64,000 bases of DNA, from contig JBMYNR010000004.1 of NCBI GenBank assembly GCA_049598495.1, positions 18,911 through 82,910 of the forward strand, written 5' to 3'. Below are positions 5,219 to 64,000 of this stretch, piece by piece; the first letter of the stretch is position 1; every line of letters begins with the position of its first letter. The DNA comes from Opitutales bacterium (lineage in GTDB: Bacteria > Verrucomicrobiota > Verrucomicrobiia > Opitutales > Coraliomargaritaceae). The notes below the pieces were generated by a model. The model saw nothing but the letters and a program-made list of their open reading frames with translations. It was not told the origin of the DNA and did no database searches. Both the position numbers and the translations under genes were made by a program.

Positions 5219-5288
5219 TTCGTCTGACTGACTAGGGATGTAGCCCCCTCACCATGTCTCGGCGTGCTCTCAGAGCGAAGACGGATCT
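5219..5288. repeat. Dispersed ~70-bp intergenic repeat A, copy 1 (inverted relative to the copy at 19226-19294)
   Basis: Its reverse complement AGATCCGTCTTCGCTCTGAGAGCACGCCGAGACATGGTGAGG...CTAGTCA matches 19226-19294. Confidence 0.85.
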
Positions 5289-5409
5289 GTGGCGACGCTA
5301 TAGCAGCTAACGCGGCAACGGAATGCCTTGCGCACATTTGATCTAAGGCTGTTTGTGTAAAGCGGGATAAGTTCGCATCGCTTAGTTAAATTATGTGTGT
5401 TCGGGTATT

Positions 5410-7028: not shown

Positions 7029-7252
7029 GGTTCATCGTCAAAGTGAGGGGAAAGGAGGTGCAGTGAAGCGGTGAATAACTCCTGATACAAAATTGCAATA
7101 GGGATGTCTCCATTGATCCGGGTCGGCTTGGTGCCGGACGCCCTGAAGGGCGCACACCAAGGCTTAGAGCGCATGGAGCTTTGTTGGAGTTCGGCCTTTA
7201 GGCCGTCTTATTCCCTATCTACAAAGCTTTTAATCTCTACACACGGCACAAC

Positions 7253-7627
7253 GTAGCGAACTTGCGCCAGCAAGGTCGATGGACGGACGTCTTCGCCGAT
7301 TCAAAACCCTTTATACGTCGACGCGACTGGCATCGCATCGCTACATCCGGCACGACGTAGCGAACTTGCGCTAGTAAGATCGACGGGCAAGCGCTTCCGT
7401 CTGTTCGGAATGCCAGACAGGCCGACGCGATTCTTATCAGAGTTCGAACTCTTCCCCAGACTTTGACGATGAGCCTTTTTTTTTGGCCCTCATACGTCGA
7501 CGCGACTGGCATCGCATCGCTACATCTGGCATGACGTAGCGAACTTGCGCCAGCAAGGTCGACGGGCGGGCGCCTCCGTCTGTTCGGAACCCCTTGAATG
7601 TCGACGCGACTGGCATCGCATCGCTAC
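7253..7627. repeat. BIME/REPIN-like array of three tandem REP doublets
   Basis: Unit X (GTAGCGAACTTGCGCCAGCAAGGTCGA) starts at 7253, 7357 and 7536. Inverted unit Y (TCGACGCGACTGGCATCGCATCGCTAC) ends at 7344, 7523 and 7627. Doublets are joined by 12-bp linkers. Confidence 0.9.
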
Positions 7628-9500: not shown

Positions 9501-9653
9501 GGTAGGGCGGGCTCGCCGAGCGCGCCGTTCGGCAAGCGAGATCACCTGCTCAGATGATCTGGATCGTCTTACGATACCAAACGACGATCGGTGCTTGGTC
9601 CGATCTCTTCAATTCGGCCTTCTTGCCAGCTCGGCACGGCGAAGCCGCCCGAC
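9501..9653. repeat. REP doublet (REPIN) between urtA and urtB
   Basis: GGTAGGGCGGGCTCGCCGAGCGCGCC at 9501 and inverted partner CGGCACGGCGAAGCCGCCCGAC ending at 9653. Confidence 0.7.
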
Positions 9654-14694: not shown

Positions 14695-16428
14695 ATGAGT
14701 CTTGAATTTACACGTCGTCAATACGCCGAGATGTTCGGCCCCACCTTGGGTGTTCAAGTGCGCCTCGCCGATACGGAACTGTTTATCGAGGTGGAGCGAG
14801 ACCTGATTGCTGAAGCTGGAGGGTATGGAAATGAGGTCAAATTTGGCGGAGGCAAAGTCATTCGTGACGGCATGGGCCAATCGCCGCTAGCCGTAGGGGA
14901 GGATTGCCTCGATTTGGTGCTCACCAATGCCACTATCATTGATCCGGTGCTTGGGATCATTAAGGCTGACATCGGAGTGAAGGAAGGCCGTATTGCCGGA
15001 ATCGGGCATGCGGGCAATCCTTTGATCCAGTCAGGGATCACTGAGGGGATGGTGATCGGTGCCGGCACTGAGGTGATTGCGGCTGAGGGGCATATTGTTA
15101 CTGCGGGCGGATTTGACTCACACATTCACTTTATTTGCCCACAACAGATCAACGAAGCCCTCTCCAGTGGAGTGACCACTATGACCGGTGGCGGCACCGG
15201 GCCTGCGACGGGTACGAATGCGACGACCTGCACGCCGGGCAAATGGAACATCCACAAAATGCTTGAGGCGGCCGAAGCCTTTCCGATGAACCTTGGTTTC
15301 ATGGGTAAGGGCAATGCATCCAACCTCGCTGCACTACGTGAGCAGGTCGATGCCGGGGCTATGGGGCTTAAGTTACACGAGGACTGGGGGACGACCCCGA
15401 GTGCCATCGACCATTGCTTGACGGTGGCTGATGAGTTGGATGTGCAGGTAGCAATCCATACGGATACTTTGAATGAGTCTGGCTTTGTAGAAACCACAAT
15501 CGGAGCCTTTAAGGATCGAGTCATTCATACCTTTCACTCTGAAGGAGCCGGCGGCGGCCACGCCCCGGACATTATGAAGGTGTGTGGCTTGCCGAATGTG
15601 CTGCCATCCTCGACAAATCCGACACGGCCTTTCACCGTAAATACCATCGATGAGCACTTGGATATGCTCATGGTCTGCCACCATCTGGACTCCAAAATCC
15701 CCGAGGATGTCGCTTTTGCGGAATCACGCATCCGACCGCAGACGATTGCAGCCGAAGATATCCTGCACGACCGGGGCGCGATCTCTATTATGTCGAGTGA
15801 CAGTCAAGCGATGGGACGTGTGGGCGAAGTGATTATTCGCACATGGCAGACTGCCGATAAGATGAAGAAGCAATTCGGTAAGTTGGAATCCAAGGAGCAT
15901 CCTGCTGCGGACAATTTCCGAGTGTTGCGCTATGTCGCAAAATACACAATCAACCCAGCAATTGCCTGTGGCTGTGCAGCGGATGTCGGTAGTCTCGAAG
16001 TTGGCAAGCTCGCGGATATCGTGATCTTCAAGCCTGCGCTATTTGGCGTGAAGCCGGAGTTTGTGCTGAAGGGTGGAATGATTGCAATGGCCAATATGGG
16101 CGACCCGAACGCGTCGATTCCGACGCCACAGCCAATGTATTATCGTCCGCAGTTTGCTTCCTTTGGTAAGGCTCTCGAAAAAACCTCAATTACTTTCGTA
16201 AGCCAGTCGGCAGTGGATAAGAATGTCGCAGCTGAGCTCGGTTTGGAAAAAATCATACGCCCTGTCATGGACACGCGGAAAATTTCGAAGTACGATATGG
16301 TTTTGAATGATTATTTACCTGAGATTAAGATAGATCCTGAGACCTACACCGTCACCGCCGACGGCGAGATCCTGACTTGTGAGCCGGCGGAGTCTTTACC
16401 TATGGCTCAGCGGTATTTTTTATTCTAG
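14695..16428 (+). CDS. ureC: Urease alpha subunit
   Basis: [27 protein letters not shown] and [12 protein letters not shown] motifs. Confidence 0.99.
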
Positions 16429-19080: not shown

Positions 19081-19225
19081 ATCATACCCATTCTACCCGG
19101 TTCAATTGAGTCCATGGGCATCGTTCTCATGGAAGGGGTATTTGGAGCATCTGCCCTAAGATGGACTTAGATCAGGTGTAGCTACGACACTCCGCTACCG
19201 TGGCTGCCTGCACGAGCGCCTCAAT

Positions 19226-19294
19226 AGATACGTCTTCGCTCTGAGAGCTACGCCGAGACATGGTGAGGCGACTATACATCACTAGTCAAACGAA
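19226..19294. repeat. Dispersed ~70-bp intergenic repeat A, copy 2
   Basis: AGATACGTCTTCGCTCTGAGAGCTACGCCGAGACATGGTGAGG...CTAGTCAAACGAA; inverted match to 5219-5288. Confidence 0.85.
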
Positions 19295-21732: not shown

Positions 21733-21813
21733 GAAATGTCTGTGGATCTGAGCGTTTCACAGTTAATTATACATAGGGCTGTCGGACTTAATACGGTTTC
21801 GATAAAGGGTCTG

Positions 21814-21886
21814 TCCTTATTTTAGGTCGTGCGCGCTCGCCGCTTCGAGCTGGCGACAAGACCGATCCGAAGGAATCGGACCACGC
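21814..21886. repeat. Dispersed ~73-bp intergenic repeat B, copy 1 (inverted relative to 39775-39847)
   Basis: TTTTAGGTCG...AGCTGGCGACAAGACCGATCCGAAGGAATCGGACCACGC matches the reverse complement of 39775-39847. Confidence 0.85.
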
Positions 21887-22191
21887 GTCGTTCGGCGATC
21901 GATATCGTAGGTCTGTATGATGTGGATTGGCCGATATCACCAACTGGCGAATGACGGTTGTTCCGGTCCACATCACGCTCGGCCGTGTCGTCCCGCTTAG
22001 CGGGATACTGAACGGCGAAACCGCCTTACTAGGAGAAACCTTCGTTCATGTGGTATGACAATTCAACAACTATGAACCACTCAACTGCCTGCGGGACTTC
22101 CCGAGTCCGATACGCCCATGTTGTTTTGAGTTTCTATCGATTCTTACTCGGCTTGTTGGATCGCCACCAAGTTGACGGTATACTCTGACGT

Positions 22192-39627: not shown

Positions 39628-39774
39628 ATCATCGTCGTTTTTCGGGGGAGAATCAGGGAGCATTGCCTGAGCTTGTCGTCGGCCCCGAGCCCATCGAGGG
39701 GCCAAGACCGCCGTTCGCCCTACGGGTTCGCTGGCCATATCTCTATCATATGGGCAATCTCTCTCTCTGGTGCT

Positions 39775-39847
39775 GCGTGGTCCGATTCCTTCGGATCGGT
39801 TTTGTCGCCAGCTTGGGTCGGCGAACGTGCCCGACCTAAAATCAGGA
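39775..39847. repeat. Dispersed ~73-bp intergenic repeat B, copy 2
   Basis: GCGTGGTCCGATTCCTTCGGATCGGTTTTGTCGCCAGCT...CGACCTAAAATCAGGA. Confidence 0.85.
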
Positions 39848-39927
39848 GATACTTTTCTTTGTCGTGCATAAAGAAACCCCACGCTGTGAAGCACGGGGCT
39901 TCGGAGAGAGCAAAGATTCAGTTTTCC

Positions 39928-51125: not shown

Positions 51126-52661
51126 ATGAGTAAGAAGTTCTATATCACCACCGCAATCGACTACGCCAACGGCTCGCCGCACCTCGGGCATGCCTATGAA
51201 AAAGTGCTGACGGATATCGTCGCCCGCTTTCGTCGAATGGTGGGCGATGATGTCAAATTCCTTACGGGGCTCGATGAACATGGTCAGAAGGTTCAAATGT
51301 CGGCTCAGAACGAGGGCGTTCCACCAATTGAAGTCTGCGATCGTCTCGCAGTTGAATTTCAAGGACTCTGCAAGGCATTGAATATTTCCAACGACGATTA
51401 CATTCGCACCACGCAAGCGCGTCATAAGAAGGTCGTTCAGGAAATTCTCCAGAAGCTTTATGATAAGGGTGAAATCTATAAGGCCGACTACAATGGCTAT
51501 TACAGTGTCCGTCAGGAACAATTTGTGACTGAGAAGGAGAAGATCGACGGTAAATGGCCGGAGATCTACGGAGAGGTCGTCGAAGTCACCGAGAGCAACT
51601 ATTTCTTCAAGCTGGCGCAGTATCAGGATTGGTTGGTTGAAACGATCAAGAGTAACGAGCAGATGATATACCCGCGCTTCCGCAGCGCCGACGTGCTCCA
51701 GTTCCTCAAGGAGCCGCTCAATGATCTCTGTATTTCTCGCCCAAAGGAGCGTTTGGAGTGGGGGATCGAACTGCCTTTCGATGAGGGCTTCGTCACTTAT
51801 GTTTGGTTTGATGCGCTGACCAACTATATCACGGCAGCCGGTTACGGTAGCGATGAATTCGCTGAACATTGGCCGGCGGACTACCATGTCATTGGGAAGG
51901 ATATTCTTGTGCCGCCACACGCCGTCTACTGGCCCATCATGCTCAAGGCGCTGGATATTGAGCTGCCAAAGCATTTTCTTGTCCACGGTTGGTGGTTGAG
52001 TTCGGGCAGCAAGATGTCCAAGAGCACGGGTGACGTGGTCAACCCACTCGACCTGATCGAACAGTTTGGCGCCGATGCCTTCCGCTACTTCGTGACGCGC
52101 GAAATGAATGTCGGGCAGGACTCAGAGTTCTCCCTGGACTTGTTCATGAGCCGCTACAATAGCGATCTGGCCAACGATTTAGGTAACCTTGTCAGTCGAC
52201 TGCTCAATATGGGCGGACGCTATACCGAGGGTGAGGTGCCGGCTGCGGAGATCGAGGAGGCGCCCGAAAAGGAACTCAAGCAGCTCTGGACGGATACGCA
52301 AAAAGAGCTCCTGCCACTTTTTGAGGACTTCCAGTTCCATAAGGCGCTCGATCGCATCTTTACATTTGTTTCCGGAATCAACCGCTATGCGGAGACACGC
52401 GCGCCCTGGAAACTGGCCAAATCGGATGCGCCTGAAGATCAGGTCGCACTGCGCACCTCGCTTGCGACTATGGCCGAGGCACTGCGCCTTGCGGTGGTGC
52501 TGCTGACCCCGGTCATGCCTGAAATCTCCTCTAAGATCCGCGCCCTCGTTGGGGCTGAGGATTTTGAACTCCTCGATGGCCAACTCGAGTGGGGCCACTC
52601 ACTCGATGGTAAATCGCTCGGCGAAAAGACCATTCTCTTTCCGCGGCCTGAGCGGAAGTAG
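51126..52661 (+). CDS. metG: Methionyl-tRNA synthetase (short form, no C-terminal tRNA-binding domain)
   Basis: HLGH, YVWFDAL and KMSKS motifs. Confidence 0.98.
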   Translation: MSKKFYITTAIDYANGSPHLGHAYEKVLTDIVARFRRMVGDDVKFLTGLDEHGQKVQMSAQNEGVPPIEVCDRLAVEFQGLCKALNISNDDYIRTTQARHKKVVQEILQKLYDKGEIYKADYNGYYSVRQEQFVTEKEKIDGKWPEIYGEVVEVTESNYFFKLAQYQDWLVETIKSNEQMIYPRFRSADVLQFLKEPLNDLCISRPKERLEWGIELPFDEGFVTYVWFDALTNYITAAGYGSDEFAEHWPADYHVIGKDILVPPHAVYWPIMLKALDIELPKHFLVHGWWLSSGSKMSKSTGDVVNPLDLIEQFGADAFRYFVTREMNVGQDSEFSLDLFMSRYNSDLANDLGNLVSRLLNMGGRYTEGEVPAAEIEEAPEKELKQLWTDTQKELLPLFEDFQFHKALDRIFTFVSGINRYAETRAPWKLAKSDAPEDQVALRTSLATMAEALRLAVVLLTPVMPEISSKIRALVGAEDFELLDGQLEWGHSLDGKSLGEKTILFPRPERK

Positions 52662-52701
52662 GTGATCGACGTGCCCGAGCAAAAAAAAAAAGGGCCGCTC
52701 C

Positions 52702-52754
52702 AACTGATAGGAATTTGCTTTTTGGCGGCGTCAGCCGTCGGGGGTTAGGGTTGA
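52702..52754. mobile_element. 53-bp oriIS-like (IS91-family-like) mini-element, copy 1
   Basis: AACTGATAGGAATTTGCTTTTTGGCGGCGTCAGCCGTCGGGGGTTAGGGTTGA; 49/53 identical to 63550-63602; truncates the Zn-dehydrogenase gene. Confidence 0.7.
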
Positions 52755-53049
52755 GCTTGCCAAATGGATCATGTCGAAAACAGTGAATATCCGTTCCGCA
52801 AATTCCGCAGGCCTGGACTTTCACCAAAATCTCATCATCTCCAAGATCTCGAATGGGAAACTCCTGGATCTGCAAATTCTGTTTTTCAACTAAAACAGCC
52901 GCCTTGGATCGTTGTGGAATTTCACTAGGCGAAGCCGTCTCGGGAGTAGATGCAATTTTGTCTCCATGATCCTTCGCAGGAACTTTCAAACCTCGTCGAG
53001 CGAGTACCTCGCTCACAATATCCGCAATTTGATCTTCAGGAAGGTTCAT
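52755..53049 (-). pseudogene. 5' fragment of a zinc-dependent (MDR) dehydrogenase with an N-terminal amphipathic extension
   Basis: ILVKVQACGICGTDIH present; the sequence breaks before the expected GHE motif, at the mini-element. Confidence 0.85.
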
Positions 53050-53093
53050 AGCGCAAATACTTTGAGTTTACCTTAATAACGCCACCCACAGCC

Positions 53094-54571
53094 TTACTGC
53101 TGAAGCAGCTCGCTGAATCGTTTTGAAGCAGCCTCCCAATCGAGGCTTGAATCTGGATTGAAATGCTGGAGCTCAAAGGAAGCTCGGATGATGTCCCTTC
53201 CTGAATGTATGCTTTCAATCTCTCCATCAGCCTTCAATTGCGCCATTATGTTGCCCAAGCCACTTCCTTCAACCGGTCCAGCGGTTACATCACAACCTGT
53301 TGCGTCCGCAGTGAGTTGATTCAAAAATCGATTCTGGGAACCACCGCCAATGATATTGATCTTCTTCAGGGATTTACCAGTTACCTTTTCGAGACCTTTT
53401 AAGACCGTTCGATAACTCAACGCCAATCCTTCGAAAATGGCTCTGCACACGACGGCAGGCTCCATATCAACAGCTTGGCCCGTGCGATCGAAGTATTCGG
53501 CGATACGCTGCAGCACATCCCCCGGTTGTTCAAAAGTAGGGTCATTTGGATTCAAGAAAGCTTTAAATGGTTCCGACTGAATCGCCAACTCACGGAGCTC
53601 ATCGTATCCGAGCCCAAGTTCCTGTTTGTCCCAATCGCGTTTGCATTGTTGGAAAATCCAAAACCCACTGATGTTTTTCAGCAATCGAGTCGTTCCCTCT
53701 ACTCCCCGCTCATTCGTCAATTTCATCGCATTGGCGATCGAGTCAGTTGAGCATTTTCAGATTCAACCCCCATCAATGACCAGGTTCCGGAGCTAATGAA
53801 GATGGACGTTTCATCCTTCGGCAATGGGCATGCCGCAACTGCAGCAGCGGTATCATGGGAGGGAGTTGCAACCACTTTTAGGTCAGCCTTGCCCACTTCA
53901 TCCGCGATTTTCTCAGTTATCTTGCCAAGAACATCTCCCGGCTCAGAGAGCTCATTGAGAATCGACTTCGGGATTTCAAAGCATGTCAGCAGATGGTCGG
54001 ACCATTGACCATTTTTTGCACTCAACATCTCACTGGTGCTGGCGATGGTGACCTCATTTGCTTTCACTCCACTCAACCAGAAGTTAATAAGGTCCGGAAT
54101 AAACAAAAGGGTTTTTGCCTTCGCAAGATTATCTCCTTTTTGTTTCTCCGCCAGCAACTGGTAGAGTGTATTAAAATGCAATTGCTGAAGACCTGCTTCA
54201 ACATACCTTGCCGATTGTGGCAGGATTTTTTCCGCCGCATCGATCATTCCATCGGTGCGATTATCACGGTAGCAATATGGAGTTTCCAACACACTGTCGT
54301 TTTCATCCAAAAGCGCATAATCTACTCCCCAGGTATCGACTCCGATGCTCTTGACATCATCACCATAACGATCCACGGCAAGTTTGACTCCTTTGATGAT
54401 TTCCTGGAACACACCTTCGATGTCCCATTTCAAAGAACCTCCCACCTCTTGTGGTTGATTGTCAAAGCGACACAATTCTTCGAGAGCAATCTTTCCGTCA
54501 GAATACACTCCCGCCAGAACTCTGCCACTCCCGGCCCCAATGTCTGCGGCCAAATAAACTTTACGGCTCAT
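53094..54571 (-). pseudogene. rhaB: Rhamnulokinase, frameshifted near 53740 (split into ORFs 53723-54571 and 53094-53726)
   Basis: AADIGAGSGR, DTWGVDY and SSGTWSLMG in one frame; TNERG..RLLKNISGFW in the other. Collinear with the intact paralog at 60282. Confidence 0.88.
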
Positions 54572-54595
54572 ACCCATTCCATCCACTCTGCTTTA

Positions 54596-55288
54596 TCAAC
54601 GTAGGCTCAAAGTATCCGCTTCGTATTTTTTCACGGTCTCAAGCCAACTTTGTTCTCCAATGACATCGTTTCGCTCGCAGAACTCGTCCCAAACGGCACC
54701 CCATGGCAATGATTTAACGTTCTCCAAAGTCGCCAATCGTGAAGTGAAATCACCCGCTTCTTCGAATGCTTGAAGTTGTTTAACGGGCTGAAGTAACGCC
54801 CGTAATAATGTTTTCTTTGCGGCGCGGGTTCCGATCACCCATGCTGCGATCCGATTGATACTGGCATCGAAAAAATCAAGCCCAATGCGGGTATTGTCGA
54901 GGTGTCCACCCTGGACCAATGCTTGCATGACCGCGAAAGTTGCATCGTCGTTGAGAACTACATGATCTGAGTCCCAACGAACTCCACGACTCACGTGTAA
55001 AAGCACGCCGGGAACAAAGCGTTGAATTGAACTGATCTTGTCGGACACGTCCTCCGTTGGATGAAAATGCCCCATATCCAAACAAAGCCACTTTTGGTTT
55101 TTCACCGCATAGCCCATGTAAAACTCATGTGACCCTACGACAAAACTCTCAGATCCAATTCCAAAAAGCTTACATTCTACCGCATCGATATTGAATGTTC
55201 CCAAATCTTCGGAAAGAACTTCGTCCAACGACTCATTCAATCGGGCACGATAGTGATCCCGGCCCACTGGGATATCTTTCATTCCATC
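54596..55288 (-). pseudogene. rhaA: L-rhamnose isomerase, 3' part only (5' part removed at the IS3 left end)
   Basis: [43 protein letters not shown] and [11 protein letters not shown] motifs. Confidence 0.92.
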
Positions 55289-55356
55289 TGCCAGGGGCCC
55301 CTGAATTAAGTCCAGCTTGAGTGATAGGATTTTCCAGCTAAGAAAGGAAAATCCCA

Positions 55357-55620
55357 ATGAAGAAGACACGAAGAACGACCGAACAGATCATCCGCATCCT
55401 CCGCGAAAGCGAAGGGCTGAGTGTGGACGAAGCCTGCCGCAAGCATGAGATCAGCGCACCGACCTATCATCGCTGGAAAGCGAAGTATGGAGCTATGGGC
55501 ATCAAGGAAGCCCAGCGACTGAGGGATCTTGAAAAAGAGAACACGGAGCTGAAGAAGCTGCTGGCCGATCAGATGCTCAAGTCGAAGGCTCTTGAAATTG
55601 CCTTGGAAAAAAACCTCTGA
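55357..55620 (+). CDS. IS3 transposase OrfA (HTH)
   Basis: EQIIRILRE...[20 protein letters not shown]7C slippery site at 55607-55614 for a -1 frameshift. Confidence 0.93.
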
Positions 55621-55640
55621 GCCCGGAACGCAGGCGTCGC

Positions 55641-56555
55641 ATGGCTATCAAAGTTCAAGAGACGCTTTCGTGTTCCGGGCGATCGGTTTGTCGCTGGCTG
55701 GGGTTGAACCGCAGCACGCTGCGTTACGTCCCCAGAACAGTGCCAGAGAAGAAGAAGCTTCTTGAATCGGAGATGGTGAAGATGTCTAAGCGATATCCCT
55801 GTTTCGGTTACCGCAAGATCACACGCAAGCTGATCGAGCAAGGCTGGGGCGTTGGCAAAAAGCTGGTGCAGCGTGTGCGCCGAGAAGAGGGTTTGCAAGT
55901 GCCTGCTCCCAAGCCGCGCAAACGCCGCCAGGGGCTCTCTACAGGGCTTCCCCAAAAGGCAAAGCATCGTAATCATGTCTGGGCCTGGGACTTAGTGAGC
56001 GATCATACCGTCCGTGGCGGGAAGCTCAGGGTGTTCAATATGATCGACGCGTTTACCAAGGAATGCCACTGCATCCACTCCGACCGTGCCATTAAGGCAA
56101 CGGACGTCTTGGCCGTGCTCGAAGAAGCGATTGAGGAACATGGTGCCCCCGAGTATATCCGCTCGGACAACGGGCCTGAGTTTATCGCTACAGCGATCCA
56201 GCAATGGCTCAGAGATAAAGGCATCAAAACCATTTACATTGATCCGGGCTGTCCCTGGCAGAACGGCTATGTGGAAAGCTTCAACGATAAGTTCCGCAGG
56301 GAGTGCCTTAACCGTGAGCTAATCTACACGCTCAGTGAATCCCGTGTTATCTTCGCCGACTATCGCCATCTGCATAACTATGAAAGGCCGCATCGCTCTC
56401 TGGGCTTGCTCACGCCAAAAGCGTATGCCAAACAACTTACCTGCCTATCTGGCTCCGGTCGGGCTACGCCCTCCCTCCGCCAGATAGGCGATCAACCGCA
56501 ACCTGAACCACAAGAAACCACCAACAATAAACCGCTTGGAAACCTATCACAATAA
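55641..56555 (+). CDS. IS3 transposase OrfB (DDE integrase core)
   Basis: WAWD, RSDNGPEF, PWQNGYVESFN and RPHRSLG motifs. Confidence 0.95.
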   Translation: MAIKVQETLSCSGRSVCRWLGLNRSTLRYVPRTVPEKKKLLESEMVKMSKRYPCFGYRKITRKLIEQGWGVGKKLVQRVRREEGLQVPAPKPRKRRQGLSTGLPQKAKHRNHVWAWDLVSDHTVRGGKLRVFNMIDAFTKECHCIHSDRAIKATDVLAVLEEAIEEHGAPEYIRSDNGPEFIATAIQQWLRDKGIKTIYIDPGCPWQNGYVESFNDKFRRECLNRELIYTLSESRVIFADYRHLHNYERPHRSLGLLTPKAYAKQLTCLSGSGRATPSLRQIGDQPQPEPQETTNNKPLGNLSQ

Positions 56556-56581
56556 GTGGACCGAAAAGGTGGACTCAGGCA

Positions 56582-57099
56582 CAACCAGCTCCGCCTTTAC
56601 GCTTGATAACTTCCGCACCGCTTCCACGAGTGCGCTCAAACATCGCTTTTTCGAAATTTGGAGAAACTTGAGGATACCCTTTCAAAGGCAATCCCGCAGC
56701 GGTCGCACTGCTCCAGATCGGAACGATGCTATCCCCATGTTCTCCCAGAATCAAAGCCTTCACCTGAGAGCTGGCGATACCCAACTCAGCAGAGATAAGA
56801 GAACGGAATCTCGCGGTATCCAACATCGTTCCCAAACCAAAAACCTGACAGGGATCAAGGTTTAAAGTCTGAGCCGCAATATGCGTCAAAATATCAACCG
56901 GGTTGGAAACCACAAAAACTTTTGCACAACTTTTGTATCCCGCCTGCTGGATGCTATCCAAAATCATCTTGAAGAGGGACACATTGCGGTTGATCAGATC
57001 CAAACGGGATTCATCCGGTTTGCGACGCAACCCGGCAGTGATGACAAACATGTCTGAATCCTTTGCACGGTCATAATCCCCTGCATAAATGCGTTGATC
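56582..57099 (-). pseudogene. Internal fragment of a lactate/malate dehydrogenase family gene, truncated at both ends
   Basis: DQRIYAGDY..VITAGLRRKPDESRLDLINRN, VSNPVD, LDTARFR and GEHGDS present. No GxGxxG N-terminus; C-terminus cut by the IS right end. Confidence 0.88.
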
Positions 57100-57157
57100 T
57101 CACAAAATGTGCGGCACGGACACCCGAAAATTCACTTAGTGATAACCAGATAACGAT

Positions 57158-59356
57158 CTAGCGCAGGAAGGCTTCATGCAAGCCGCCATCGACATTGAAG
57201 ACCAATCCAGTCGTCTTGGAAGACTTATCACTGGACATGAAGAAAATTGCTTCCGCCTGATCTTCAGGCGTGATCGGCGCATTCGTCAATGTGCGGCTAG
57301 CATAAAATTCTGCCAACTTCAGACGCAAGTCCTCGGTCGACTCTTCTTCGCTGTAAGCGATAGCGTATTTGGCCAAAGAGGCCATGACGCGATCGCGCGG
57401 GAACATCAATGAACCCTTGACCACCGTGGCAGGTGCCACCGCATTGACCCTTGCATACGGCGCCAACTCTACAGCCAATTCGCGCACAATATGGTTCGCA
57501 GCGGACTTCGAGGAGTCATAAGCGACAGAGCCCTTCTTCGAAACGACACCATTCACGGAAGTCGTGATCACCACAGCACTCTTCATGTGCTTGCCTTGAG
57601 CCACAAAGATGGGCTTAGCCGTGTCGGCAACCAAGTAAGGACCGACAGAATTGATCTTGAAGACCAACTCCCACTGCTTGACCGAGAATTCACCGTCCAC
57701 ATTAGGCGCGAGGAAGATACCAGCTGTCAGCGCAACCACATCGATACCACCGTAGGCGTAGATCACCTCATCGTAACACGCTTGAATGCTGGCTGCATCG
57801 GTGATGTCCATCTGGCAGGCAATCACATTACCGCAGCTCGAAACACCCGTACCGGCTACTCCGATTCCCATGCCAACCTTCGCAGAAATTTCATCGGCAG
57901 TGGCTTGTGCTGCTGCCAGATCTAGATCAGCGCAGACCACGTGCGCACCCTCTTCAATATATCGGAAGGCCGCTTCTTTGCCGATACCCGAACCAGCACC
58001 AATCACGACAACCACCTTGCGCGCAAATTCCTTTTCCTTTGGCATGCGCTGCAGTTTGGCTTCTTCTAGCAACCAATACTCAATGTCAAATGCCTCTTGA
58101 CGAGGCAAGCCGATGTACTCATCGATCGCTTCCGCACCGCGCATCACGCCGATGGCACAGTTGTAAAATTCGGCTGTTACGCGCGACTCTGACTTGTTCT
58201 TACCAAAGGCAATCATACCCAAACCAGGGATCAAGATCACAGTTGGGTTGGCATCCCGCATTGCAGGCGAGTTGGCATGTTTGCACGCCTCGTAGTACTC
58301 GGCATAGTCCACACGGTACTGCTCAAGTGCCGATTGAATGCTCGCCTTGAGTGCGTCCACATCGCCCGAAGTAGGATCCCACGCAACATACATGGGCTTA
58401 ATCTTAGTGCGCAAGAAGTGGTCTGGGCAAGAGGTACCAATTTCAGCGAGTCGTTCAGCATCGTTGGAATTTACAAACTCCAAGACGGCGTCGTCGCGGT
58501 GGACAGTCGCAATGAAGCGCTTACTTTGAGAGACTTCTCCGCGCAAGTAAGGCAGCAAGTCAATGGTCATCTCACGGGCTTTGTCAGCATCCACCACCGC
58601 GTACTTCTGCCCACCGAAAGTGTCCGCACCGCGGTCTTTCGATTCGATATAACGGCCCGCTTTTTCAATCAATTCGAGCGTCAAATCATAGCAGGCTTTG
58701 TCATCATCATTCCAGTTGATCAAACCGTGCTGCCCCATGTTGATGCCCACACAGTCCTTGTTTTCTTGATACACCGCCTGCATCTTCAACCCCAAGTCAA
58801 AGCCTGGACGCTGCCAAGGAAGGTAAGCAAGTTGATCGCCGTAAATCTCTTTCGTCAGCGCCTCAGAATTTTTACAAGCGGCAATGGCAATGAAAGAGAT
58901 CGGGTGCATGTGATCTACATGCTTGGCGCCAATGAAGCTGTGCAAGGGCGTATCGATCGATGAGGGACGCGGGTTCAAATTGAAGGTGGTGTGCGGGTAC
59001 ATGTGCACCATCTGATCTTCAATCTCAGTCTTCACACCATTGGGTGTGGTCGCCGCGTAAATCGACTGCAAGTCAATCAACTTCTCCTGGTACAGCGAAG
59101 AGAAGTTTGCCACCTTAGAGGTGCGCAAGTCACCGCCGGATCCTTTGACCCAGAGCACCTCTACTGACTCTCCATTGAGCGGATCCGTCTCATTGACCTT
59201 CGATGAGGTGTTGCCGCCTCCGGTATTCGTGATGCGCTGGTCGGATCCTAAAATATTGGAACGGTATACTAAGCGCTCAACGGGTGACAAAGTTGCTGCG
59301 TGCGCCTCATCCCACTCATAGTTAACGTGTTTGAAGTCGGATTTTTCCTTACTCAT
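57158..59356 (-). CDS. Bifunctional rhamnulose-1-phosphate aldolase/short-chain dehydrogenase (RhaEW type)
   Basis: TNTGGGNTSSK, GTSCPDHFLRTK and FDIEYWLLEEAKL motifs; SDR GAGSGIG and YDSSK motifs. Confidence 0.95.
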   Translation of the reverse strand: MSKEKSDFKHVNYEWDEAHAATLSPVERLVYRSNILGSDQRITNTGGGNTSSKVNETDPLNGESVEVLWVKGSGGDLRTSKVANFSSLYQEKLIDLQSIYAATTPNGVKTEIEDQMVHMYPHTTFNLNPRPSSIDTPLHSFIGAKHVDHMHPISFIAIAACKNSEALTKEIYGDQLAYLPWQRPGFDLGLKMQAVYQENKDCVGINMGQHGLINWNDDDKACYDLTLELIEKAGRYIESKDRGADTFGGQKYAVVDADKAREMTIDLLPYLRGEVSQSKRFIATVHRDDAVLEFVNSNDAERLAEIGTSCPDHFLRTKIKPMYVAWDPTSGDVDALKASIQSALEQYRVDYAEYYEACKHANSPAMRDANPTVILIPGLGMIAFGKNKSESRVTAEFYNCAIGVMRGAEAIDEYIGLPRQEAFDIEYWLLEEAKLQRMPKEKEFARKVVVVIGAGSGIGKEAAFRYIEEGAHVVCADLDLAAAQATADEISAKVGMGIGVAGTGVSSCGNVIACQMDITDAASIQACYDEVIYAYGGIDVVALTAGIFLAPNVDGEFSVKQWELVFKINSVGPYLVADTAKPIFVAQGKHMKSAVVITTSVNGVVSKKGSVAYDSSKSAANHIVRELAVELAPYARVNAVAPATVVKGSLMFPRDRVMASLAKYAIAYSEEESTEDLRLKLAEFYASRTLTNAPITPEDQAEAIFFMSSDKSSKTTGLVFNVDGGLHEAFLR

Positions 59357-59470
59357 GTGGATTTATGTGGATTTTTATGGTTTTGTGGTTGAAATTGGGC
59401 CCATAAAACCACACCATTGCATAATTCCAAGCTTTTAATTGTAAATTTTCGGTTGCTATCATTCCACATT
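59354..59470. promoter_or_regulatory. Divergent promoter region with repeated TGTGG/CCACA boxes (candidate DeoR operators)
   Basis: ATGTGGATTTATGTGGATTTTTATGGTTTTGTGGTT (about 10-bp period), plus inverted AAACCACA and ATTCCACATT. Confidence 0.6.
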
Positions 59471-59484
59471 GTCTGCCCTCATCT

Positions 59485-60249
59485 ATGCTCGCCTCCGAAA
59501 GACAGGATCACCTAGTGCAACTGATTGAAAGCCAAGAAGTGGTACGGACATTGGACTTGGCAGAATTGTATCAGGTCTCGGCCGAAACGATTCGACGCGA
59601 CTTTCTCTTGCTGGAGCAAGCCGGTAAACTGCGCCGCATTCATGGCGGGGCACAAAGCCTGACTACCCGCAGCCAGCTTCAGTCCTTTACCCAACGGGAA
59701 AACATCCAAACTAAGCAAAAGCAAGCCATCGCGCGCACTGCGCTGCAACTCATCCACGCAGACTCAATATACGGCTTCGATAGTAGCACCACCGCGCTGG
59801 CACTGGTCAACGAGCTCCCGGATTTGGCCTATCGCGCCATCACGAATTCCCACCGCGTCCTTGAGCACCTCACCCACTACCATCAAGTAGAGCTGATCTC
59901 CACTGGTGGGCGCTATCAAAGTAAAACCCAAACCTATGTTGGGGGGGACAGCATCAATACCCTCCGGCACCACAACATTAATATCAGCTTCCTCTCCTGT
60001 GTCGGATTCGACCTCCAAAGAGGTGCCAGCGAAAGCTTTGAGCAGCAGGCCACATTTAAGGAACGACTGGTTGAATACTCCGAAAAAATCGTTCTGCTGG
60101 TTGATTCCAGCAAGTTTAGCCAACAGTCCGAGTATTTTTTTGCGGAGCCTAAAAAAATTCATCAAATCATCACCGACCAAGCGATTGATCCGGCCATAGC
60201 GCAAGCCATCCAAGAACGCGGCATTGACTTAGTCATCGCCGATAGCTGA
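59485..60249 (+). CDS. DeoR/GlpR-family transcriptional regulator (rhamnose locus)
   Basis: VSAETIRRD, RIHGGA, DSSTT and LVDSSKF motifs. Confidence 0.94.
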   Translation: MLASERQDHLVQLIESQEVVRTLDLAELYQVSAETIRRDFLLLEQAGKLRRIHGGAQSLTTRSQLQSFTQRENIQTKQKQAIARTALQLIHADSIYGFDSSTTALALVNELPDLAYRAITNSHRVLEHLTHYHQVELISTGGRYQSKTQTYVGGDSINTLRHHNINISFLSCVGFDLQRGASESFEQQATFKERLVEYSEKIVLLVDSSKFSQQSEYFFAEPKKIHQIITDQAIDPAIAQAIQERGIDLVIADS

Positions 60250-60281
60250 ATGCATTTAGTCGAAAAAGAAATTTTGTCACG

Positions 60282-61757
60282 ATGAAACAAAAGAAAATCT
60301 ATCTTGCCGTCGATCTCGGCGCTGGCAGCGGCCGCGTCATCGCGGGTGAATTTGACGGACAGCGCATCGAGCTGCACGAAATCAATCGTTTCGACAACAC
60401 CCCCGTCGAGCTGCCCAGCGGCTGGCACTGGAACCTAACAGCGCTCTACCAAAATATTTTAGATGGCATCCGACTGGCAGCGGATCGGTACGGAGATGCG
60501 ATTGTTAGCCTCGGCATCGACACTTGGGGCGTAGATTACGGTCTGCTCGACAAAAAGGGCGCACTACTGGGACTGCCTTACCAATACCGCGACGGACGCA
60601 CGCAGGGCATGATGGAGGCCGCCTACGAATTGGTGGACAAGAAAGCCATCTACCAGGCGACCGGCATTCAGTTCATGTTTTTTAATTCCATTTATCAGCT
60701 ACTCTCAGAGCTGAAACACGACAGCGCCGCCCTGAAACAAGCCGAGCACTTGCTCTTTATCCCCGACCTGCTGGCCTACTGGCTGACCGGAAAAATGAGC
60801 CAAGAGCGCAGTATTGCCAGCACCTCTCAGCTCTACAACCCGCAGACCAAGGACTGGGACTACGCGCTAATCGAAAAGCTGGGTCTACCCCCAAAGCTCT
60901 TTAAACCGCTCTGCGATGCCGGCGATCCGCTGGGTCCGCTGACTGAAAGTTTACAAAAAACCACCGGACTGAAGCAACTGCAAGTGATTACCGTGGGTGG
61001 GCACGACACCGCCAGCGCAGTGGCGGCCGTACCCAGCCAGGCCCCAACACCCGCCTACCTCAGCAGTGGTACTTGGTCGCTGATGGGGCTGGAAGTCGAC
61101 GAAGCCATCATCTCGGAGGCCTCCTTTGAAGATGCCTTTACCAACGAAGTCGGCGTGTGCGACAAAATCCGCTTCTTGAAAAACATCTGCGGGCTGTGGC
61201 TGATCCAAGAGTCCAAGCGCTACTGGCACAGCCAAGGGATCGACATCCCCTACGCCAAGATGGCCGCATTAGCTGATGAGGCGACCCCCTTCCGCTCTTT
61301 AATCTTCCCAGATGCGCCCTGCTTTGCGGAGGCGGGCAACATGCCACTCAAAATCCAAGACTACTGCCGTGAGACAGAACAGCCCGTCCCCGAAACACCC
61401 GGCCAAATCATCCGCTGCATTTACGAGAGCTTGGCCCTACGCTACGATCAGGTCTGGCAGCATCTCACCAAATACGTGAGCGAGCAACCCAGCACCCTCC
61501 ACATTGTAGGCGGTGGCTGCCAAGATCGCCTGCTCAACCAATTTGCCGCCAACGCTATCGGGATCACGGTTGCGGCCTGCCCAGTGGAAGCCACTGGATT
61601 GGGTAATATTACCGTACAAATGCTGGCCGACGGCGTGATCGCCGACCTCACCGAGGGCCGCAAAATCGTCCTCAACTCCTCGCTGGTGGAAACCTTTGAG
61701 CCCCAAGATCAGACCACTTGGGATGCCGTCAAAGCGCGCTTCGCCACCTTAAGTTAA
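60282..61757 (+). CDS. rhaB: Rhamnulokinase (intact)
   Basis: AVDLGAGSGR, DTWGVDYG, HDTASA, SSGTWSLMG and LKNICGLW motifs. Confidence 0.92.
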   Translation: MKQKKIYLAVDLGAGSGRVIAGEFDGQRIELHEINRFDNTPVELPSGWHWNLTALYQNILDGIRLAADRYGDAIVSLGIDTWGVDYGLLDKKGALLGLPYQYRDGRTQGMMEAAYELVDKKAIYQATGIQFMFFNSIYQLLSELKHDSAALKQAEHLLFIPDLLAYWLTGKMSQERSIASTSQLYNPQTKDWDYALIEKLGLPPKLFKPLCDAGDPLGPLTESLQKTTGLKQLQVITVGGHDTASAVAAVPSQAPTPAYLSSGTWSLMGLEVDEAIISEASFEDAFTNEVGVCDKIRFLKNICGLWLIQESKRYWHSQGIDIPYAKMAALADEATPFRSLIFPDAPCFAEAGNMPLKIQDYCRETEQPVPETPGQIIRCIYESLALRYDQVWQHLTKYVSEQPSTLHIVGGGCQDRLLNQFAANAIGITVAACPVEATGLGNITVQMLADGVIADLTEGRKIVLNSSLVETFEPQDQTTWDAVKARFATLS

Positions 61758-61788
61758 CTCTCCTAGCTCACTCATCCTACAGATCACC

Positions 61789-63288
61789 GTGAAAACTTCC
61801 AAAACCATCGAAAACCCAGACGTCATTCTCATCGGCAGCGGCATTATGTCCGCCACCTTGGGCACCATGCTCAAAGAGCTAGACCCCGCGCTGAAAATCC
61901 AACTCTACGAAATGACGGAGAGCTTCGCGCAAGAGGCATCGAATGGCTGGCACAATGCCGGCACGGGACACGCGGGCATTTGCGAGTTGAGTTACACCCC
62001 CGACTATGGACCCGACGGCAAGGTCAAAGTCGCCAAGGCCATCGAGATCTTCCAACAATTTGAGCACTCCAAACAATTCTGGGGCTACGCCGCGCGCAAG
62101 GGCATCCTCAAAAATAGCCGCGAGTGCATCAACCCCGTCCCCCACCTCAGCTTTGTCTACGGGCAAGCGCAGGTAGACTTCCTCAAATCGCGCTTCGAGG
62201 GCATGCAGGCCCACCACTTCTTCAAGGACATGGAATACACCGAAGATCGCGAGCAGATTAAAGAGTGGGCCCCGCTGCTACTCGCCGGTCGCGATGACAC
62301 GCCGATTGCCGCAACCAAGATGGAGCCCGGCACCGACGTCAACTACGGCGTCCTGGCCAGTAAAATGATCGAGTGGTTGGGCGCACAGCCCGGCGCCGGC
62401 TATGCCACCTCCCACCGCATCACCAATCTCACCAAAGTCGGCGATCGCTGGGAAGTCGAGGGCGTCAACCTCAAGACCAAAGCACGCTTCAAAAACTCCG
62501 CAAAGTTCGTCTTCATCGGCGCGGGCGGCGGCAGCTTACCCCTCTTGCAAAAGTCCGGCATTCCCGAGAGCAAAGGCTTTGGCGGCTTCCCGATTGGCGG
62601 CCAATGGTTAATCTGCGACAAACCCGAAATCGTCGAAAAACACATGGCCAAAGTCTATGGCATGTCCCCCGGCGCGGCGCCGACCATGGCAGTCCCGCAC
62701 TTGGACACCCGGATTATCAACGGCAAAAAAGCCATCCTCTTTGGACCCTACGCCGCCTGGACGACCAAGTTCTTGCACGTGGAGGGCAAATTCACCGATC
62801 TGCCCAAGTCGATCCGCACCGACAACATTGCCTCACTGATCAAAGTCGGCCTGCACAATATCCCACTGGTGCGCTACCTGATCCAGCAAGGCACCCAGAG
62901 CATGCAAACTCGCATGAAAGAACTGAAGGCCTTCTTCCCCGACGCTCAGACCAGCGATTGGAAATTGATCGATGCCGGTATCCGCGTCCAAGCGATCAAA
63001 AAAGAAGACGGCGACGCCGGCATCGTGCACTTTGGCACCGAAATCCTCACCTCTGCCGACAACTCCATCTCCGCCCTACTGGGCGCCTCCCCCGGAGCCT
63101 CCGTCTCCGCCAACGTGATTTTAAACATCATCAAGCGCTGCTTCCCAGAAAAGCTGGCCAGCGAAGAGGGCCGCAAAAACATGCAAGCCATGATCCCGTC
63201 CTACGACGAAGACCTTTCGCAACCCGAAATGGCCAGCCGCCAACAAGCGCTCAGCGAACAAGCCTTCGCCTCACTGGATTGTTTGTAG
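61789..63288 (+). CDS. mqo: Malate:quinone oxidoreductase family flavoprotein
   Basis: LIGSGIMSATL, NAGTGHAGICELSYT, VPHLDTR and LLGASPGAS motifs. Confidence 0.92.
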   Translation: MKTSKTIENPDVILIGSGIMSATLGTMLKELDPALKIQLYEMTESFAQEASNGWHNAGTGHAGICELSYTPDYGPDGKVKVAKAIEIFQQFEHSKQFWGYAARKGILKNSRECINPVPHLSFVYGQAQVDFLKSRFEGMQAHHFFKDMEYTEDREQIKEWAPLLLAGRDDTPIAATKMEPGTDVNYGVLASKMIEWLGAQPGAGYATSHRITNLTKVGDRWEVEGVNLKTKARFKNSAKFVFIGAGGGSLPLLQKSGIPESKGFGGFPIGGQWLICDKPEIVEKHMAKVYGMSPGAAPTMAVPHLDTRIINGKKAILFGPYAAWTTKFLHVEGKFTDLPKSIRTDNIASLIKVGLHNIPLVRYLIQQGTQSMQTRMKELKAFFPDAQTSDWKLIDAGIRVQAIKKEDGDAGIVHFGTEILTSADNSISALLGASPGASVSANVILNIIKRCFPEKLASEEGRKNMQAMIPSYDEDLSQPEMASRQQALSEQAFASLDCL

Positions 63289-63365
63289 CTTTTTTGGGGA
63301 TGCGGTTATGATAGTGCCCGCTAATCGATAGCGCATTTAATGTGGAATCCATTGGAAATGATTTG

Positions 63366-63549
63366 ATGAATTTGGATGCTGACACCTACTGAAAACTTGT
63401 GGAGCTTGCGCTCGCTCTCGACGACAAAAGCAGCTTCTACTGGAATTTCTATGTCGTCGCTAACATTGCTATATTGGGCTGGATATTATCGAACGGTCAC
63501 AAAATCTTAGGCAAAGCTAGAGCCGTTGGGATTTTAGGCTATCTTACTA
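63366..63549 (+). pseudogene. Remnant of a membrane-protein gene (in-frame TGA at codon 9; cut by mini-element copy 2)
   Basis: ATG at 63366 reads MNLDADTY*KLVELALALDDKSSFYWNFYVVANIAILGW, then runs into the repeat. Confidence 0.45.
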
Positions 63550-63602
63550 AACTGATAGGAATTTGCTTTTTGGCGGCGTCAGTCGCCGGGGGAGAGGGTT
63601 GA
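63550..63602. mobile_element. 53-bp oriIS-like mini-element, copy 2
   Basis: AACTGATAGGAATTTGCTTTTTGGCGGCGTCAGTCGCCGGGGGAGAGGGTTGA; same orientation as copy 1. Confidence 0.7.
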
Positions 63603-63772
63603 TCCTCGACTATTTCGGGTGGTTCCTCGAACTGGGCCTCATCGGGAATGATATACTTAACCATGGTGATGCCACCGAGGATGAATAAGCCTACAGCGTG
63701 AAATACAGCACTTATTATTAAAACGTTAAGAAGGAGCGGATTGAATTTTTTCTTTTTCTGACCCGAAATCAT
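63603..63772 (-). pseudogene. 5' fragment of a membrane-anchored Pro-rich protein gene truncated by the mini-element
   Basis: KKKKFNPLLLNVLIISAVFHAVGLFILGG..EAQFEEPP (TonB-like anchor SxxxH); the last ~20 codons are read from the element. Confidence 0.6.
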
Positions 63773-64000
63773 TTATGTCTGCGGTCGATGCCTTCTAACT
63801 TGCTCTGTAATTTTAACAATCTTAGGACGGTAAATCATTGAGCCATTGACATGAAGGACGCTTTTGTTGCTTTCTCTTGTGAGTAGTCAAAGAAGTGGAC
63901 AGTCCTCGGCTGGCGAGAATCGGTGTGGAATATTCTCTGCCTGGACCGAAACCCCAGAAGAGAAAGAAATGAAAAATTTGAAATATAAAATTTGGGTGGT

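Follow-up and report, generated by a model that had tools for sequence, protein, structure and literature searches.

Introduction

In the established chemistry of the IS91 family of insertion sequences (IS), the enzyme nicks the strand at the origin end (oriIS, here also ori), which is then displaced and joined by way of 5' ends bound to the enzyme, and IS91, IS801 and IS1294 use targets of the CTTG/GTTC type, according to excerpts of PMC13181058. For ISCR elements, excerpts of PMC6218425 ascribe ori-side cargo and outward promoters to ISCR1, point to the mismatch between one-ended rolling-circle transposition, which moves DNA from the terIS side, and the ori-side position of the variable genes of ISCR1, and state that as of 2018 no ISCR had been shown to transpose. 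Here we analyse a window of 64,000 nucleotides from an Opitutales bacterium (contig JBMYNR010000004.1, positions 18,911 to 82,910, assembly GCA_049598495.1) that carries two copies of a 52-bp repeat. This repeat is almost certainly the terminal tip of the oriIS of an ISCR-type element of the IS91 family, and short tips of this kind very probably part cassette-like arrays of foreign blocks in Opitutales genomes.

The source genome comprises 1.75 Mb in 73 contigs (C numbers, also labelled G000); G numbers denote related genomes, L numbers individual loci, and X4, X6 and X8 runs of other studies, the X4 study also including a possible source run. The survey covers 181 copies in Opitutales, counted after chance or cut-off matches (L007, L021, L083, plasmid loci) and four truncated duplicates had been dropped. 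Copies either stop at the end of the 52-bp unit (short form) or continue inwards as a conserved G-rich tail leading to a transposase gene, its remnant or a later insertion (long form); the 'long' class of 32 includes five loosely assigned copies, four having a repeat inserted before the G-rich tail and one being a tandem short copy.

The repeat pair and its assembly support

The two repeats lie on the same strand at 52702-52754 and 63550-63602, 10,848 bp apart, and agree at 49 of 53 positions, the first mismatch falling at position 34 and leaving 33 identical bases before it, which reproduces the coordinates and identity given in an initial annotation of the window. The pair is confirmed as a real feature; the unit, then put at 53 bp, is 52 bp long and starts at 52703 and 63551. 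Copy 1 (52703-52754, plus strand) consists of the start ACTGATAGG, a T run, a hairpin, a G tract and the inner end GGGTTGA; copy 2 (63551-63602, plus strand), recognised by sequence comparison, heads the next block. The 6-bp GC hairpin of copy 1 (52724-52739) was found by folding and that of copy 2 (63572-63587) from its sequence, folding forming five of its pairs. Each copy carries one C>T change in the 3' arm, at a different place, so that, as annotated, the stem substitutions merely shift a G:T pair. The folding energies alone are unexceptional (z 0.18 and -1.74), and the five inner pairs are preserved in 32-36 of 34-37 aligned rows. A BLAST search of the genome returned the second window copy with an E value of 1e-16 and, beyond the twin copies first described, three more (C2:5224, C2:6999, C3:4843) and a half copy at C3:62620; in both C2 copies the loop of the hairpin contains an additional repeat.

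A contig from run X6 wholly spans copy 2, and one from run X4 spans the inner junction of copy 1. X4 and X8 contigs extend across the outer junction of copy 1 by 28-29 bases, just short of the 31 bases required for spanning. In contigs from three runs of another study, a different flank is joined at 52703. Given these contigs, and arrays of the same repeat within megabase contigs, an assembly artefact, the chimeric junctions that the initial annotation had kept in mind, is hardly credible, and no more credible is a repeat that is the end of an IS3-family element or an unrelated repetitive extragenic palindrome (REP). Near the left end of the IS3 element, at 55321-55334, 12 of 14 ori-core bases do match, which we take as coincidence; the repeat shows a fixed linkage to an HUH transposase, no inverted partner in the window repeat comparison and no match in an Rfam scan.

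Cognate transposase and distribution

A PF04986 profile search of the genome found two genes, on C31 and C3, both outside the window, so the cognate transposase foreseen by the initial annotation does exist. The C3 gene is truncated, and the C31 gene is a 475-codon frame, open to the contig end, whose protein matches PF14319 and PF04986 (Zn domain and HUH; E 8e-19 and 8e-25) and shows the Zn domain, HPHIH and one tyrosine (YFLRA). This single-tyrosine pattern, which we take as the mark of the ISCR group, is common to ISPps1 and another plasmid enzyme in our tree. IS91 proper has two catalytic tyrosines (Y-x3-Y); the two-tyrosine pattern of IS91, IS801 and IS1294 is not found in this transposase, and the Y2 enzyme first expected gives way to one of ISCR type. 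The last 94 bp of C31 recur at C3:62191, followed by the final codons and a long-form ori without the tip; at C3:62492-62866, a long-form ori lacking the outer tip has taken the place of the start of an antitoxin-like gene.

The suspected oriIS identity is borne out by position. In eight of ten clade loci the ori lies 29-647 nt downstream of the transposase frame; of the remaining two, one lacks DNA there and one is truncated, with an ori 2.3 kb further. Beside other IS91-type enzymes of the same order it was seen in none of five informative loci, and the ori-linked enzymes group together (88/92) in a tree of 24 rows. Where this transposase lies within 4 kb (21 copies), it is found on the inner side and the opposite strand in 19. 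The core ATAGGAA also terminates three plasmid relatives, one of them annotated ISPps1, and the best match of the transposase among plasmid proteins is 36% identical, others about 27-32%. At the other end, a terIS-like sequence about 75-80 nt upstream of the transposase is common to C31, G010 and L110, and partly to C3; a related one occurs in G040 and L091, and terIS is reused by two units without transposase. The 17-base core was present in 18 of 61 relatives and in none with the reversed control, at least one one-mismatch match being due to chance. A 26-base pattern gave 86 loci, Verrucomicrobiota accounting for 73 among the 80 titles listed, and a metagenome pattern scan only two loci. The one empty site shares only about 84% identity, which is too little for a target duplication to be recognised.

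Some features of the transposase loci stand apart. The promoter region (C31:1430-1490; L039, L110) has TGTTCAC half-sites like those before lexA and recA, and the G010 element has 14 identical bases in common with the recA promoter of this genome (C7 and C13 hold the regions upstream of recA and lexA). SOS control of the transposase would be possible; it has been shown for the ISCR1, ISCR2 and ISCR8 transposases, according to excerpts of PMC13393415. Gene pairs that look toxin-antitoxin-like in translation lie just past terIS in four clade elements (C31:1500-2300, C3:700-1400, L039, L111). In genome G064 (L152-L171), another IS91-type transposase is present in about 30 near-identical copies, those checked being without this ori, and a plasmid of a cultured Trichlorobacter strain (L247, NZ_CP058410.1) has 14 places matching the transposase, the one examined ending in a closely similar ori.

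Boundaries of the unit

Known host sequence diverges two bases before TGATAGG, as judged from natives, the host sequences corresponding to a flank or block, that are 99.6% and 91% identical. In 12 of the 181 copies, the tip is preceded by a perfect repeat of its own first 6, 7, 13, 15, 48, 49 or 50 bases, which always begins at the unit start (chance expectation about 0.04 for 6 nt). These two observations, together with the runs that join another flank at 52703, fix the start of the unit at ACTGATAGG, with GC, AA or AT in some lineages. The two natives further show that AC is the element's own terminus and not host DNA, and the NAAC or GAAC-type target read from these bases falls away: the real preference is weak, with TT before the unit in 64 of 180 outer junctions and the commonest 4-mer in 11, and no tetranucleotide target of the CTTG/GTTC type of IS91 proper emerged among these 180.

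The inner end is likewise fixed, two bases past GGGTT, the last two bases varying by lineage; counts of inner junctions omit 38 of the 181 copies, which have no recognisable inner end. Beyond this point the information in short copies is about zero, with C at the second base in 55 of 111. No promoter or terminator was found within the tip, nor a sigma-70 match in four regions, and a TTGAC stretch is conserved in the long tail of one clade. A G-quadruplex as a general feature of the inner junction was rejected, the canonical pattern of four G3+ tracts with the junction in the middle loop occurring in only six of 32 long copies (L111, L073, L101, L116, L012, L078). REP-like repeats sit in the loop of the ori hairpin, or at the inner end of some long copies (C2:5224, C2:6999, L133, L210, L207). 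At some loci (L012, L027, L129, L143, L145, L150) the usual tip is immediately preceded on its outer side by a second unit of 71 bp, once in tandem, which starts like an ori and has a separate hairpin; it is perhaps the tip of a sister element.

The conserved GTT near the inner end, and the integron-like geometry of the arrays described below, would suit a tyrosine-recombinase crossover of the integron or dif type, at which the initial annotation had hinted. We regard this as very improbable, as the junction lies two bases after GTT, the cargo has no second half-site and blocks end inside genes. The genome's own recombinases were matched within 4 kb of one of the 181 copies and none of the 32 long ones, a search that could miss distant integrases; the single match, 88% identical to the genome's own recombinase, is likely the host XerC/D.

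Arrays of tips and cargo blocks

Copies cluster on one strand, opposite-strand neighbours making up only 3/126 and 2/124. Next to long copies, a neighbour on the same strand was found on the outer side in 16 of 24 cases vs 4 of 21 on the inner side (Fisher p 0.002, overstated by kinship and selection), and blocks stack outside the long-form ori, on one side only. Between tips up to 7 kb apart, the median block length is 1.7 kb, and Pfam matches were obtained for 42 of 56 block frames, among them intact dehydrogenases, transporters, phosphatases and carbohydrate-binding proteins, in many cases beside an incomplete neighbour at one end. Junctions lie within frames of at least 100 codons in 26 of 100 inner and 41 of 143 outer cases, against 50% of random positions. 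The longest frame of a block points the way of the transposase in 44 of 51 blocks, random pieces of this genome giving 811 vs 689. Capture of lagging-strand pieces was considered and dropped, GC skew being negative in only 19 of 51 blocks; the direction bias is thus unexplained by GC skew, and selection for read-out from the element is our guess.

Comparison between relatives shows these blocks in different orders. At 93-98% identity, G061 has X-A-B-C, G062 has X-B-A-(long ori remnant)-C and G388 has B-C, and about eight further groups show the same flank with different cargo or the same cargo with a different flank. One flank leads directly to a long ori in G063 and to a short tip plus cargo in G062, and tandem tips without cargo were also observed. 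A 3.6-kb unit in G061, made up of a tip, cargo, a second ori and terIS but no transposase, occupies a site that is empty in G062 and G063, and G011 has a similar ori-cargo-ori-terIS unit, again without transposase. To judge by such sites, blocks can apparently travel as a whole, from the outermost ori to terIS. The view of the initial annotation that each copy heads a cargo block held up, and mobilisation in trans is plausible; the polar, shuffling arrays beside a transposase gene had gone unnoticed.

Is the short unit a free insertion?

Open frames flanking the tip on both sides, 49 pairs drawn from 96 short copies, were submitted to Pfam, a test blind to insertions between genes, 37 of the 49 pairs having no cut domain. 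None of the 12 domains cut at a junction continues across the tip, and the six pairs with Pfam matches on both sides all belong to different families. A translated search found natives on both sides for three copies, no pair being contiguous, and comparison of five regions with close relatives, three of them uninformative, gave no clean insertion. The clean insertions with contiguous flanks of a miniature inverted-repeat transposable element (MITE) or free mini-IS were thus seen in 0/12 and 0/3 cases, with limited power between genes.

These results bear most directly on a two-step explanation, in which the hairpin and G tract would act as a leaky inner terminator, the 52-nt mini-IS would insert alone, and one-ended transposition from it would then carry inner-side DNA and land at the nick site of another ori, or delete the outer flank. 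Several observations suit it: mini-elements of 229-679 nt from the ori end of IS801 move in vivo (excerpts of PMC3189936), IS91 termination fails in 1-10% of events and a mini-IS91 moves with the enzyme supplied in trans (both excerpts of PMC13181058), outer junctions shift by 7-16 nt between relatives, and the weak preferences at the two junction types (TT before, C second after) are similar. The block at L361, which lies over 6.8 kb colinear with G061 at 98-99%, fits as well. We nevertheless consider it, the main rival of the reading preferred below, the less likely of the two, not only for the missing clean insertions: IS801 minis vary in length and end at a target-like tetranucleotide, whereas here the end is fixed and its last two bases depend on the lineage, and two steps alone leave the one-sided stacking unexplained.

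At the inner junction, one native of 99% identity has a sulfatase-like gene that runs across uninterrupted and bears no likeness to the tip, and two more natives (94% and 92%) behave likewise, which excludes obligate microhomology. At copy 2 of the window, GGTT stands in register in 7 of 13 homologues and one contig matches from 63597, and this inner junction may differ from that of other copies. Such possible microhomology would suit an origin of the mosaics as debris, in which full elements insert time and again, deletions arise beside the ori and RecA recombines the 50-bp repeats, the transposase making the outer junction only. One deletion junction has five bases in common, the outer half of the tip in front of a given block varies from genome to genome, as would follow from a crossover within the tip, and most IS801 fragments are ascribed to reorganisation by Bardaji et al. 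(excerpts of PMC3189936). Random deletions, in contrast, would not end at one base in most of 111 short copies, and the three near-identical natives have no GGTT at the inner junction, so that we hold this explanation to be improbable, more so than insertion in two steps.

Proposed mechanism

The reading we prefer, and in which our confidence is evenly poised, is capture by nicking, extension of about 50 nt, joining to foreign DNA and resealing. The transposase would nick before ACTGATAGG, and the free 3' end would be extended by about 50 nt, past the hairpin and G tract, displacing the old tip. The extended end would then take up a foreign strand that has been cut at a site of the weak TT type, and the far end of the foreign piece would attack the enzyme-bound old tip, the product being the flank, a new tip with its cargo, and the old ori. 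The same steps without cargo would yield tandem tips, whose existence implies that an extended 3' end can reseal to the displaced tip. Each capture would add one new tip, growth would be one-sided and no free mini-element would arise; reordering would follow from excision between tips and re-entry at the nick site, by the enzyme or RecA. The window would then represent the outer two units of an array whose long-form ori and transposase lie past the contig end or have been lost. More tentatively still, the system could be called an HUH-transposase integron, in which the origin would serve an ISCR-type enzyme as attachment site. Any DNA, in pieces of 1-4 kb, would be taken in through reverse strand transfer, each capture would leave a 52-bp origin duplicate, and blocks would be reordered by excision from ori to ori and re-entry. 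If this were true, the same reaction would explain the ori-side gain of genes by ISCR elements.

A number of points weigh against capture at the origin. The data are contigs only, and no intermediate, circle or transcript was seen in them. Array loci were picked for holding the motif and come from related genomes, which overstates p values, and the strict scan overlooks degenerate tips, some of them within the long-form tail. Covariation in the hairpin is modest, its score being reached by 18 of 500 shuffles; two copies have the transposase in an unexpected place or strand; and no outward promoter was found that would explain the orientation bias. In three long-read genomes the core was matched 32, 30 and 13 times (controls 0-1) and PF04986 not once, which implies that many arrays are now relics. 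The first block of the window is far longer than a typical block and has genes on both strands. Finally, clean simple insertions could be missing because they were purged, arose in another cell or are intergenic, and L361 could be an insertion followed by loss of its left side.

Genes and blocks of the window

The array begins beside the host gene metG (51126-52661, plus strand), assigned like the other frames by Pfam-type annotation. The gene downstream of metG is not conserved among 17 relatives, so that the comparison of this region foreseen in the initial annotation could fix no empty site. An A run plus GC arm at 52681-52702 (plus) is possibly half a terminator cut by copy 1; no partner arm was found elsewhere in the assembly.

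In block 1 (52755-63550, 10.8 kb), part of a rhamnose operon survives in decayed form, accompanied by an IS3 element, deoR, mqo and a second kinase, in part as later insertions. As annotated, minus-strand genes are cut to the right of both copies. At the inner end of copy 1 it is a Zn-alcohol dehydrogenase (52755-53049, minus), of which the 5' 98 codons remain, vs open frames of 376-475 amino acids in 22 homologous loci, six of which share its linkage to rhaB (and rhaA); the remainder was not found in the assembly. It is followed on the minus strand by a rhamnulokinase-like FGGY kinase in two frames (53094-54586) and the 3' part of rhaA (54596-55290; Pfam 186-417 of 417), cut beside the IS3-family element (55316-56581, plus, left end approximate), which is unrelated to the ori units. 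Further on lie a lactate/malate dehydrogenase fragment (56575-57051, minus), an aldolase/short-chain dehydrogenase fusion (57158-59356, minus), which we take to be rhaD-like, and, on the plus strand, a DeoR regulator (59485-60249), the second FGGY kinase (60282-61757) and malate:quinone oxidoreductase (61789-63288). The frame said to be cut on the left of copy 2 does run open into the junction (63393-63550, plus); having no Pfam match and no homologue in 100 family genomes (searched as 63393-63551), it is at best a putative gene.

Copy 2 does not close an island, as had been thought, and instead heads block 2 (63603-64000, minus), which continues past the contig end. A gene of about 460 amino acids, cut near residue 60, is represented there by its 57 initial codons (63603-63772) and the region upstream of them. 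An X4 contig joins the right end of the IS3 element (56581) to the block-2 gene (63597), and C69 holds the C-terminal part of this gene family next to an IS3 end; block 2 may, from these sequences, duplicate the 5' end of a resident gene. Elsewhere the window has a dispersed 60-80 bp repeat family in both orientations (9570-9653, 21809-21909, 39774-39852), a 123-bp triple repeat (7204-7609), inverted ends 14 kb apart (5241-5306 with 19208-19274) and an Rfam match to 5_ureB_sRNA (63.6 bits, 14859-15157, minus).

Comparison with known systems

Among eukaryotic elements, Helitrons, with their Rep-helicase, are rolling-circle HUH elements that gather gene fragments, as here; we know of no repeated ori tip between such fragments. 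Closest are ISCR1 and other ISCR elements, which likewise have a one-tyrosine HUH transposase and the ATAGGAA core at the ori end. Their cargo, too, is variable, lies on the ori side and mostly points away from the element (excerpts of PMC6218425). Here, in contrast, the array strings together many blocks, all of them ending in an ori-tip copy with a fixed length of 52 bp and open to reordering, the cargo is metabolic and no outward promoter was detected. The IS801 minis of Bardaji et al. 2011 (excerpts of PMC3189936) are also transposase-less pieces from the ori end of an IS91-family element, trapped, however, as plain insertions of 229-679 nt with a target-like tetranucleotide end, whereas the present tips measure 52 nt, have one fixed end and were never found plain. 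In the ISCR28 ori-ori 'sandwich' (Yuan et al. 2024, as cited in excerpts of 10.1101/2025.01.22.634252), a gene between two sequential oriIS is mobilised, as here; there a single gene is flanked by a remnant on one side and a full element on the other, here minimal tips form a series with one-sided build-up and shuffling. A circle between two IS91 copies has also been described (excerpts of PMC5737581). In the literature covered, subscription papers incompletely, we came across no account of reordered cassettes separated by ori tips of fixed length, which does not show absence from print.

The arrays would offer a base-resolution record of ori-side capture, with a 52-bp site, its cognate enzyme and empty, tandem, single-block and reordered states, and a marine test system for how ISCR-type elements gather genes; for Opitutales they would be a route to assemble islands that degrade sugars and sulfate esters. 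Integrons (IntI, attI, attC) likewise place the enzyme gene beside a platform site, line up cassettes in the same direction parted by short hairpin sites, change their order and persist without the enzyme, and same-orientation cassettes, repeated sites and reordering between strains were all found here. They differ in that the present enzyme is of the HUH type, block ends are arbitrary with partial genes, and the array lies inside a transposable unit. No IntI was seen beside the arrays among the frames inspected after long copies, nor whole-gene cassettes with defined ends, partial domains standing at block ends. The system is a member of the IS91/ISCR family, neither IS91 proper nor an integron, though integron-like in layout.

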